Made by a program: the position numbers and the translations under genes. The notes beneath the pieces were generated by a model that had not been told where the DNA came from, ran no database searches, and saw only the letters and a list, made by a program, of their open reading frames with translations. Below, one piece after another: positions 2,485-41,243 of a stretch of 64,000 bases of DNA. The first letter of the stretch is position 1. Each line of letters opens with the position of its first letter. Source of the stretch: Escherichia coli (GTDB taxonomy: Bacteria > Pseudomonadota > Gammaproteobacteria > Enterobacterales > Enterobacteriaceae); NCBI RefSeq assembly GCF_003018255.1, contig NZ_CP027440.1; one strand, written 5' to 3'.

Positions 2485-3933
2485 ATGAAGTTTATCATTA
2501 AATTGTTCCCGGAAATCACCATCAAAAGCCAATCTGTGCGCTTGCGCTTTATAAAAATCCTTACCGGGAACATTCGTAACGTTTTAAAGCACTATGATGA
2601 GACGCTCGCTGTCGTCCGTCACTGGGATAACATCGAAGTTCGCGCAAAAGATGAAAACCAGCGTCTGGCTATTCGCGACGCCCTGACCCGTATTCCGGGT
2701 ATCCACCATATTCTCGAAGTCGAAGACGTGCCGTTTACCGACATGCACGATATTTTCGAGAAAGCGTTGGTTCAATATCGCGATCAGCTGGAAGGCAAAA
2801 CCTTCTGCGTACGCGTGAAGCGCCGCGGCAAACATGATTTTAGCTCGATTGATGTGGAACGTTACGTCGGCGGCGGTTTAAATCAGCATATTGAATCCGC
2901 GCGCGTGAAGCTGACCAATCCGGAAGTGACTGTCCATCTGGAAGTGGAAGACGATCGTCTGCTGCTGATTAAAGGCCGCTACGAAGGTATTGGCGGTTTC
3001 CCGATCGGCACCCAGGAAGATGTGTTGTCGCTCATTTCAGGTGGTTTCGACTCCGGCGTTTCCAGTTATATGTTGATGCGTCGCGGCTGCCGCGTGCATT
3101 ACTGCTTCTTTAACCTCGGCGGCGCGGCGCATGAAATTGGCGTGCGTCAGGTGGCGCATTATCTGTGGAACCGCTTTGGCAGCTCCCACCGCGTACGTTT
3201 TGTCGCTATTAATTTCGAACCGGTCGTCGGGGAAATTCTCGAGAAAATCGACGACGGTCAGATGGGCGTTATCCTCAAACGTATGATGGTGCGTGCCGCG
3301 TCCAAAGTGGCAGAACGTTACGGCGTACAGGCGCTGGTTACCGGTGAAGCGCTCGGCCAGGTGTCCAGCCAGACGCTGACCAACCTACGCCTGATTGATA
3401 ACGTCTCCGATACGCTGATCCTGCGTCCGCTGATCTCTTACGACAAAGAGCACATCATCAACCTGGCTCGCCAGATTGGCACCGAAGACTTTGCCCGCAC
3501 GATGCCGGAATATTGCGGCGTGATTTCCAAAAGCCCGACGGTGAAAGCGGTTAAATCGAAGATTGAAGCGGAAGAAGAGAAGTTCGACTTCAGCATTCTC
3601 GATAAAGTGGTGGAGGAAGCGAATAACGTTGATATCCGCGAAATCGCCCAGCAGACCGAGCAGGAAGTGGTGGAAGTGGAAACCGTCAATGGCTTCGGCC
3701 CGAACGACGTGATCCTCGATATCCGTTCTATCGATGAACAGGAAGATAAGCCACTGAAAGTCGAAGGGATTGATGTGGTTTCTCTGCCGTTCTATAAACT
3801 GAGCACCAAATTTGGCGATCTCGACCAGAGCAAAACCTGGCTGTTGTGGTGTGAGCGCGGGGTGATGAGCCGCCTGCAGGCGCTCTATCTGCGCGAGCAG
3901 GGCTTTAACAATGTGAAGGTGTATCGCCCGTAA
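2485..3933 (+). CDS. thiI: tRNA 4-thiouridine synthase ThiI
   Basis: Track ORF 482 aa; PP-loop SGGFDSGV and C-terminal rhodanese-like region; divergent from xseB. Confidence 0.95.
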
Positions 3934-3986: not shown

Positions 3987-5451
<1,465 letters not shown>

Positions 5452-13005: not shown

Positions 13006-14481
13006 TTACGTCAGATGCGTTTTTCGTAGCGCCAGATAATCCAGTAAACCACCAAGCACGACGCCAGAAAGGGCGACTAAAACCCCGACTTCCAGCAGAG
13101 CAGGCAGGAAAGAGAAGTGCGTCAAATCCAGCGCGTCCATCGTCAACAGCAGTAACCACACGGCCAACAGGCTGACGCCCGCCGCCAGTGTCCACATGGC
13201 AAAGGCATAACCTGCCGGATATTCGGTACGGGAGATAAAGTTATCATTTACTCGTGTATATTCAAGCGTCTGGCGACAAACCAGCAGCAAGATAAGCCCT
13301 GGTACGGCAGCGGCGACGGAGAATAGATAGAATGTCGACCAGCCGTGTGCTTCAACAAACCAACCCGCCACGGGGCCGACATAAACTCGCCCTACAGCAG
13401 AAAGCGCTGAGAGCAGGGCAAATTGAGTAGCGGAAAATGACTTATTACACAGCGTCATTAACAGCGCGACAAAGGCTGATGTACCCATCCCGCCACAGAG
13501 GTTTTCGAAAAAGACGGCTGCGCCCATGCTGTAGAGATGCTTATCAGTAATCGACAGCAGCCAGTAACCGGCGTTAGATGCACCTTGTAAAATGCCGAAA
13601 ATCAGCAGTGCACGGAACAGCGACAGGCGCTGCATCAAAATCCCACCGTACAATGCGCCAACAATGGTCGCCAGTAAGCCAAGCGTTTTGTTAACCACGC
13701 CTACTTCACCCGCATCAAACCCGACGCCGCGAATCAAAAACGTGGTTGTCAGGCTCATAGCGAATGCGTCGCCCAGCTTATACAGCACGATAAGAAGCAA
13801 AATAAGCCAGGCATTATTGCGACCAAAGAAATCTCGCAGAGGTGCAACAACCGCTTGTTCCAGCGTTTTGGGCACAGGAATGGTGTCGGTGGGTTCTGGT
13901 GCAAGCAACGTCGCGATAATACAGGGGATCAACAGCGCCGCCATCAACCAGTACATGCCCTGCCAGCCCAGCCATTTATCTGCCAGCCACAGGGCTAAGC
14001 CGCCGGAAACCAGCATCCCTAAACGGTAACCCAGCACGCTGATTGCCGCGCCCGCACCACGTTCTTCTGCCGGGAGCACATCGGTTTTCCACGCATCGAA
14101 GACAATATCCTGGGAGGCAGAGCAAAAAGCGATCACCACCGCCAGTGCCGCCATCCAGCGGAGCTGGGTGCCTGGTTCGAGAAAACCCATCGCCGCAATG
14201 GCGACTAATAACAGAATTTGCGTGGCGAGCAGCCAACCGCGCCGCCGCCCGAAAAATGGGGGCGTGTAGCGGTCCATCAGTGGTGACCAGAGGAATTTAA
14301 AAACGTAAGCCTGGCCTACCAGAGAGAAGAAACCAATGGTTTTGAGATCGATATTCTCGACCGTCATCCAGGCCTGTAAGGTGCCGGACGTCAGGGCGAG
14401 CGGTAGCCCGGAAGCAAAACCCAGGATCAGCAATATGGCTGAACGCGGCTGTTGAAAAATACGTAAATATTGACTGGACAT
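13006..14481 (-). CDS. ampG: muropeptide permease (MFS)
   Basis: Track ORF 491 aa, MSSQYLRIFQQPRSAILL... Confidence 0.95.
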   Translation of the reverse strand: MSSQYLRIFQQPRSAILLILGFASGLPLALTSGTLQAWMTVENIDLKTIGFFSLVGQAYVFKFLWSPLMDRYTPPFFGRRRGWLLATQILLLVAIAAMGFLEPGTQLRWMAALAVVIAFCSASQDIVFDAWKTDVLPAEERGAGAAISVLGYRLGMLVSGGLALWLADKWLGWQGMYWLMAALLIPCIIATLLAPEPTDTIPVPKTLEQAVVAPLRDFFGRNNAWLILLLIVLYKLGDAFAMSLTTTFLIRGVGFDAGEVGVVNKTLGLLATIVGALYGGILMQRLSLFRALLIFGILQGASNAGYWLLSITDKHLYSMGAAVFFENLCGGMGTSAFVALLMTLCNKSFSATQFALLSALSAVGRVYVGPVAGWFVEAHGWSTFYLFSVAAAVPGLILLLVCRQTLEYTRVNDNFISRTEYPAGYAFAMWTLAAGVSLLAVWLLLLTMDALDLTHFSFLPALLEVGVLVALSGVVLGGLLDYLALRKTHLT

Positions 14482-40300: not shown

Positions 40301-40852
40301 TTACAATTTTTTAATTATTCTGGCTGGATTACCGCCCACGACAACGTTGTCCGGGACATCTTTTGTGACAACTGCACCTGAGGCTACCACGACGTTATCA
40401 CCAATGGTCACACCAGGGTTAATGACCGCACGTCCGCCAATCCAGACGTTATTACCGATGGTGACGGGTTTCCCCAGTTCAGCACCGCTATTACGTGCTA
40501 CAGGGTCGATGGGATGTGTTGCCGTGTAGATATGAACGCCTGGTGCCAACATACAGTTATCACCAATGCGAATAGGGCAGACATCAAGCATCACGCAATC
40601 GAAGTTGGCGAAAAAATTATTGCCGAGAAAAATGTTATAACCATAGTCACAGCGAAACGTTGGCTCAATATAAGCCTCTGTCACCTGACCGAATAAATCA
40701 GCAAGAATTTGCTGGCGTAATGTGTGCTCTTCCGCCAGGGAATGATTGTATCGGTGAATAAGCCGACGAGCGCGCAGGCGATCGCGAGATAACGCCTCAT
40801 CTGCCGAGTGATACAACTCACCAGCAATCATCTTTTCTTTTTCTGTGCTCAT
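40301..40852 (-). CDS. maa: maltose O-acetyltransferase
   Basis: Track ORF 183 aa; left-handed beta-helix hexapeptide repeats. Confidence 0.95.
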
Positions 40853-40930
40853 TACTGACCTCCGGTTGCTGAAAATGCGGCAACACAGTAAGACGAAAAG
40901 TCAGTGAAGAGAACGTTCCCATTACATCTG

Positions 40931-40946
40931 TGTGATGAAGATCACA
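40931..40946. promoter_or_regulatory. CRP consensus box TGTGA-N6-TCACA (TGTGATGAAGATCACA) upstream of maa
   Basis: Exact match to both CRP half-sites read from sequence, about 80-95 nt upstream of maa ATG. Confidence 0.6.
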
Positions 40947-41024
40947 TAGGGTATGCCTTCATGGCGAAAGAATTATAAAACTCTTAATAAACAGCCGGTT
41001 ATAGCTCCGAAAGCGAGTTATTTA

Positions 41025-41243
41025 TTAGCGAATAAATTTCCATACTGAGGAAGGGATCTTGTCGTACAGTTTATTCATGGTCAATTCGGCGAGGCGGTGA
41101 TCTGCGGCTGAGTAAAATACCGCCAGTTCATTATCTGATAATTCGTATTTATTTTTCTCGATAACACGCTCCAGCGTGTCAATTGTCTGGCAACGACGTA
41201 AACGCATTAAATAATCGGTTTTTGTTAAAGGTTTTTCGGACAT
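41025..41243 (-). CDS. hha: haemolysin expression-modulating protein Hha
   Basis: Track ORF 41025..41489 trimmed to [22 protein letters not shown] (72 aa). Confidence 0.95.

Follow-up and report, generated by a model that had tools for sequence, protein, structure and literature searches.

A 64,000-nucleotide stretch of Escherichia coli DNA, called the window here and numbered from its first base, carries in front of maa what appears to be a perfect binding site for CRP, and the question raised by this locus is whether that site places maltose O-acetyltransferase under catabolite control. This enzyme, Maa, adds acetyl groups to glucose, maltose and many glucosides, and is unwelcome where cells are engineered to make glycosides. 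An earlier note on this DNA had described the box as a perfect match in the 172-bp spacer between hha and maa, some 80-95 nt upstream of the maa start, had proposed it as a functional and perhaps new activating site, and had called for it to be scored with a weight matrix. We conclude, with a probability of roughly 80%, that the box is a high-affinity cAMP-CRP site from which a class I CRP-dependent sigma-70 promoter of maa is activated. The features on which this reading rests are collected in Table 1. All local genes (pdeB, ylaC, maa, hha, tomB and acrB) are carried on the minus strand, and the spacer between hha and maa spans 40853-41024.

Table 1. Features of the hha-maa region, in window coordinates; promoter positions are relative to the maa transcription start
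Feature	Position	Strand	Remarks
maa	40301..40852	-	maltose O-acetyltransferase, 183 aa; gene proposed as regulated
hha	41025..41243	-	gene upstream of maa, on the same strand
CRP binding site	40931..40946	.	TGTGATCTTCATCACA read toward maa; both half-sites equal the consensus; centre 40938.5
Palindrome GGGAACGTTCTC	40909..40920	.	-42..-31, overlaps the -35; candidate LacI-family (TreR) operator
Weak -35-like hexamer TTCTCT	40908..40913	-	-35..-30; 3/6 matches; 17 bp from the -10
-10 hexamer TACTGT	40885..40890	-	-12..-7; 3/6 matches
maa transcription start (G)	40878	-	published cap-selected start, converted; leader of 26 nt
Shine-Dalgarno GGAGG	40859..40863	-	6 nt before the ATG, within the leader
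Second, weaker CRP-like sequence AGTGATACAACTCACC	40807..40822	.	within the maa coding region, at about +63.5

The box itself is as the earlier note had described it. Apart from the sequence TGTGATGAAGATCACA at 40931-40946, neither strand of the 64-kb window holds an exact TGTGA-N6-TCACA; dinucleotide-preserving shuffles gave an expectation of 0.04 and at least one match in only 4 of 100 cases. Counted upstream from the A of the maa start codon, the box occupies nucleotides 79-94 and is centred at 86.5. The scoring that the note had called for was done with a symmetrised CRP matrix built from the 106 other ChIP-seq sites of Haycocks 2015, the maa site being excluded. On this matrix, whose maximum is 22.0 bits, the box scores 20.1 bits and would rank third against the 106 sites, with the runner-up in the window at 12.1 bits. 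The weaker CRP-like sequence within maa reaches 11.4 bits, the fourth highest score in the window; its K-12 counterpart, AGCGATACAACTCACC, is found under the same SELEX peak as the box (Shimada 2011, PMC3105977), and the intragenic sequence is probably not functional. In K-12 MG1655 the half-sites of the box are identical and one base of the N6 spacer is changed, so that the allele reads TGTGATCTTTATCACA toward maa. The E. coli of the window is not K-12-like: over the 321 bp from 40780 to 41100, only 11 of 5424 complete genomes reach 99% identity to it, the best match being strain DETEC-S792 at 99.7%.

CRP binding upstream of maa is already known from two published genome-wide data sets. Shimada 2011 (PMC3105977) placed maa among 119 'newly identified' CRP targets of genomic SELEX, and the supplement places the K-12 sequence TGTGATAAAGATCACA between maa and hha; in ETEC H10407, Haycocks 2015 (PMC4287617) found CRP in vivo by ChIP-seq at a high-confidence peak whose site, TGTGATCTTTATCACA, was assigned to maa. 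The binding data thus belong to the K-12/ETEC allele, which is one N6-spacer base apart from that of the window, but both target lists name the very same site and assign it to the same gene. What the available parts of these two papers give is a site listing, with no class assigned from a transcription start, no conservation analysis, no expression test and no mention of a palindrome. The earlier idea of a functional activating site therefore gains published binding by SELEX and ChIP-seq and, as described below, a class I position, but the site is not new. CRPBSFinder does not mention maa, and neither do the available portions of the main text and supplements of a Crp ChIP-exo study. What we add here is the promoter model, which is built from the class I geometry given by a published transcription start, a conserved -10 and conservation of the site across genera, and which allows catabolite control of maa to be annotated as probable.

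The transcription start comes from SMRT-Cappable-seq of K-12 (Yan et al. 2018, PMC6131387; coordinates of NC_000913.3), in which a monocistronic b0459 transcript begins at 479944 on the reverse strand. This position was converted to the window through an alignment of the two sequences that is gap-free downstream of the box, and it puts the centre of the CRP box at -60.5. The archetype of class I CRP-dependent promoters, lacP1, has CRP centred at -61.5. The maa site is thus one base off the canonical position, a difference within the mapping error of the start. The earlier note had called the position of the box plausible for activation and had allowed that a mapped start might leave it non-functionally placed; the published start gives a class I distance instead.

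A consensus promoter scan found no promoter on the maa strand, and SELEX with RpoD holoenzyme alone gave peaks for ylaB, ylaC, hha and tomB, with none listed for maa; the two results together fit an activator-requiring promoter. On the other hand, the cultures that yielded the maa start were in late log phase and had grown in glucose M9 and/or rich medium (PMC6131387), so that some maa transcription takes place when cAMP may be low. The same study lists a 'novel' hha-maa transcript that starts inside tomB (K-12 480424, corresponding to about 41359 in the window), and a terminator scan detected no intrinsic terminator after hha. Given this start within tomB and the lack of a detectable terminator, maa is also reached by read-through.

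Conservation across genomes points in the same direction as the geometry. A genome-collection scan with Maa returned mostly Bacillota homologues, with 13 enterobacterial loci among the matches listed (Escherichia, Citrobacter, Enterobacter, Pluralibacter, Cedecea, Siccibacter and an 'Escherichia sp.'); four Salmonella-type loci were retrieved separately through the exact Salmonella-type Hha sequence. The order tomB-hha-maa-ylaC is kept in all 13 enterobacterial loci among the matches listed. When 500 bp upstream of maa were scanned, the best CRP-matrix match scored 13-20 bits and lay 80-100 bp from the maa ATG in 12 of these 13 listed loci, Siccibacter being the only one without such a site within the 500 bp. 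The four Salmonella-type loci carry AGTGATATAGATCACA, which scores 18.2 bits with its centre 86.5 bp from the ATG. In an alignment of 15 enterobacterial sequences, the spacers show 49% per-column identity overall, and the conserved columns cluster in the CRP half-sites, a palindrome downstream of them, the -10, the Shine-Dalgarno sequence and the ATG. The last T of the -10 is invariant in 15 of 15 sequences and the first T nearly so, and of the 14 sequences that bear a CRP site, 10 have 53.5 bp between its centre and this invariant T at -7. Within the species, 5420 of 5426 complete E. coli genomes match the 77 bp that run from the box to the start at an identity of 95% or more. From the geometry of the promoter and this conservation, we infer that CRP activates maa.

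It is worth noting that Maa is much less conserved among enterobacteria (73-90% identity) than Hha (90-99%) or TomB (84-99%) in the loci among the matches listed, and that outside the enterobacteria the best 80 loci kept by the scan are all from Bacillota (Bacillus, Paenibacillus and relatives), with Maa identities of 61-72%. This pattern of sequence identity hints at horizontal transfer.

Other explanations of the box have to be weighed against an activator site. CRP could bind here without meaningful effect on maa, the box being a background or chromosome-organising site, since many sites bound genome-wide have no known regulation, and 34% of the ChIP-seq targets are intragenic (PMC4287617). 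We consider this unlikely for maa, where the score is near-maximal, the distance from the mapped start is the canonical one of class I, and both the site and its distance from the -10 are kept across genera in a spacer that otherwise evolves fast. The box might instead serve a divergent promoter on the plus strand, whose transcript would be antisense to hha; a -10-like TATAAA does occur on that strand at 40974-40979, about 36 bp from the box centre. CRP would then sit near -47.5, where it does not activate, the promoter scan gave none on the plus strand at this TATAAA, and the part of the spacer that holds it is unconserved outside Escherichia, whereas the elements on the maa side are conserved. 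We therefore regard a divergent promoter as very improbable.

Being palindromic, the box might also act in RNA, forming a hairpin in the 3' UTR of hha or terminating tomB-hha transcripts. It can indeed fold into a 6-bp stem with a 4-nt loop, and tomB-hha transcripts must end somewhere in the spacer, even if some read through (PMC6131387). But the scan turned up no terminator-like site, the stem is not followed by a T-run, the predicted fold of the spacer RNA is no better than that of shuffled sequences (z = -0.30), and the spacer has no Rfam match. Moreover, the orthologous sequences CGTGACTGCGATCACA and TGTGAGCTTCATCACG keep the CRP half-site consensus and lose the symmetry of the stem, so that a role in RNA seems to us highly improbable. 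An equally slim chance is left for another regulator of the CRP/FNR family, for example FNR, as the real ligand, an idea that draws on the resemblance of GTGAT-N4-ATCAC within the box to the FNR core TTGAT-N4-ATCAA. CRP sites and FNR sites are told apart by the G of GTGA and the C of TCAC. At these discriminating positions the box is of the CRP type, and CRP itself binds there by SELEX (PMC3105977) and ChIP-seq (PMC4287617).

If the box is an activator site of maa, as we favor, the mechanism would resemble that of lacP1. When glucose is low, cAMP-CRP would bind with its centre at -60.5, and the bound protein, by analogy with lacP1, would touch the C-terminal domain of the RNA polymerase alpha subunit. 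In this way CRP would recruit the polymerase to a core that is probably weak on its own (TTCTCT and TACTGT), with transcription starting at 40878. The class I contact is thus put forward by analogy with lacP1, and the two promoters share a single CRP site about 61 bp upstream of the start, a core that in maa looks weak by sequence, and an operator of the LacI-family type nearby, in maa a candidate. The products are akin as well, in that the lac operon encodes LacA, a paralogous hexapeptide-repeat sugar O-acetyltransferase. The promoters differ in that the maa CRP site matches the consensus in both half-sites whereas the lac site is imperfect, in the maa centre at -60.5, and in the placement of the candidate operator, which in maa lies over the -35 and not over the start site.

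This candidate operator is the palindrome GGGAACGTTCTC, which lies 24 bp from the centre of the CRP box and is one mismatch from GGGAACGTTCCC (11 of 12 positions in both the window and K-12). Allowing up to one mismatch, GGGAACGTTCCC has one match in the window against 0.08 expected. A perfect 12/12 match stands at the same position upstream of maa in four Citrobacter, two Enterobacter and four Salmonella-type loci; Cedecea and Enterobacter Ag1 depart from it at two positions, E. coli and Pluralibacter at one, and E. albertii and a divergent Escherichia at three. The exact palindrome is absent from the Bacillota maa loci that were fetched. At -42..-31, over the -35, the candidate operator is placed where a bound repressor would block RNA polymerase.

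A likely ligand is suggested by treB. The maa palindrome, which can be written GGGAACGTTC(T/C)C, is in its perfect form the same as the invariant palindrome of the treB promoter. In K-12 this promoter, directly downstream of treR, reads TTGTGATCTTCGCTGCGTTTC-GGGAACGTTCCC-G, and TTTCGGGAACGTTCCC is invariant in all five treR-treB spacers compared (K-12, Citrobacter, Salmonella, Enterobacter and a Pantoea-labelled sequence), which vary otherwise. TreR is the LacI-family repressor of treBC. Considering the phylogenetic footprinting, the position beside treR and the role of TreR at treBC, the treB palindrome is most likely the TreR operator. YcjW was also considered as the ligand of the maa palindrome and was rejected, given that its apparent operator at ycjM/ycjU, GGGACCGCTACC, is four mismatches from the maa sequence. 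Copies of GGGACCGCTACC are found upstream of ycjM and just before ycjU, at the 3' end of ycjT (4192-4203 and 14120-14131 of the extracted K-12 locus), and this pair probably represents the YcjW operators.

The likeness between the two promoters extends beyond the palindrome, since treB, like maa, has a CRP-type TGTGA motif followed by the GGGAACGTTCCC palindrome upstream of the -10. The 18-bp spacing between the CRP and palindrome centres of treB is shared by the maa promoters of Cedecea and of Enterobacter Ag1 and R1, whereas the spacing at maa is 24-25 bp in Escherichia, Citrobacter, the Salmonella-type genomes and Pluralibacter. The two promoters also differ. At treB the CRP site (0.7-4.9 bits) is conserved in its left half only and the palindrome is invariant; at maa the CRP site is strong, and the palindrome deviates at one position in E. 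coli and at three in E. albertii and the divergent Escherichia. Among maa promoters, in what are few and related sequences, genera with a perfect palindrome tend to have weaker CRP sites (13.9-18.2 bits), and Escherichia combines near-perfect CRP sites (18.7-20.4 bits) with a decaying palindrome.

The palindrome over the -35 suggests, from sequence comparison, that maa may be under dual control by CRP and TreR. TreR would probably block the -35 in genera with a perfect palindrome, and may act more weakly in E. coli. More tentatively, and with somewhat less than even confidence, we propose that maa might belong to the TreR regulon as a second member, so far unrecognised, and that its promoter might represent an ancestral enterobacterial CRP-plus-TreR module. 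In Escherichia, the decay of the operator (one to three mismatches) together with a CRP site that is now perfect suggests a shift toward control by CRP only. If this proposal is true, Maa would be made with trehalose-6-phosphate present and glucose absent, and an enzyme whose physiological role is unclear would be linked to the metabolism of trehalose or of internal free glucose. The probable switch-on by cAMP-CRP, with possible release by trehalose-6-phosphate, could help explain when Maa is active and what its natural role is.

The TreR-type operator beside the CRP box is the only item here that is possibly new, and it may already be recorded in RegPrecise, EcoCyc or RegulonDB. In the literature searched we found no link between TreR and maa, and nothing relevant on the palindrome itself. 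The available part of the supplements of a 2026 carbon-source atlas, which includes trehalose, mentions neither maa nor treB, and a paper on treR of E. coli W and a comparative paper on the LacI family give neither an operator sequence nor maa.

Two further observations concern the same promoter region. In a genomic SELEX study of FlhDC, a peak is located at the old K-12 coordinate 479234, within about 7 bp of the centre of the CRP box, which in those coordinates is at about 479227.5. In E. coli ML35 (NZ_CP025747.1), an IS5-like element of the ISKpn26 family (2518-3692 of the extracted locus) is inserted in the maa promoter, between the CRP box and -35 region on one side and the -10 and start site on the other, and maa is thereby cut off from its activator site.
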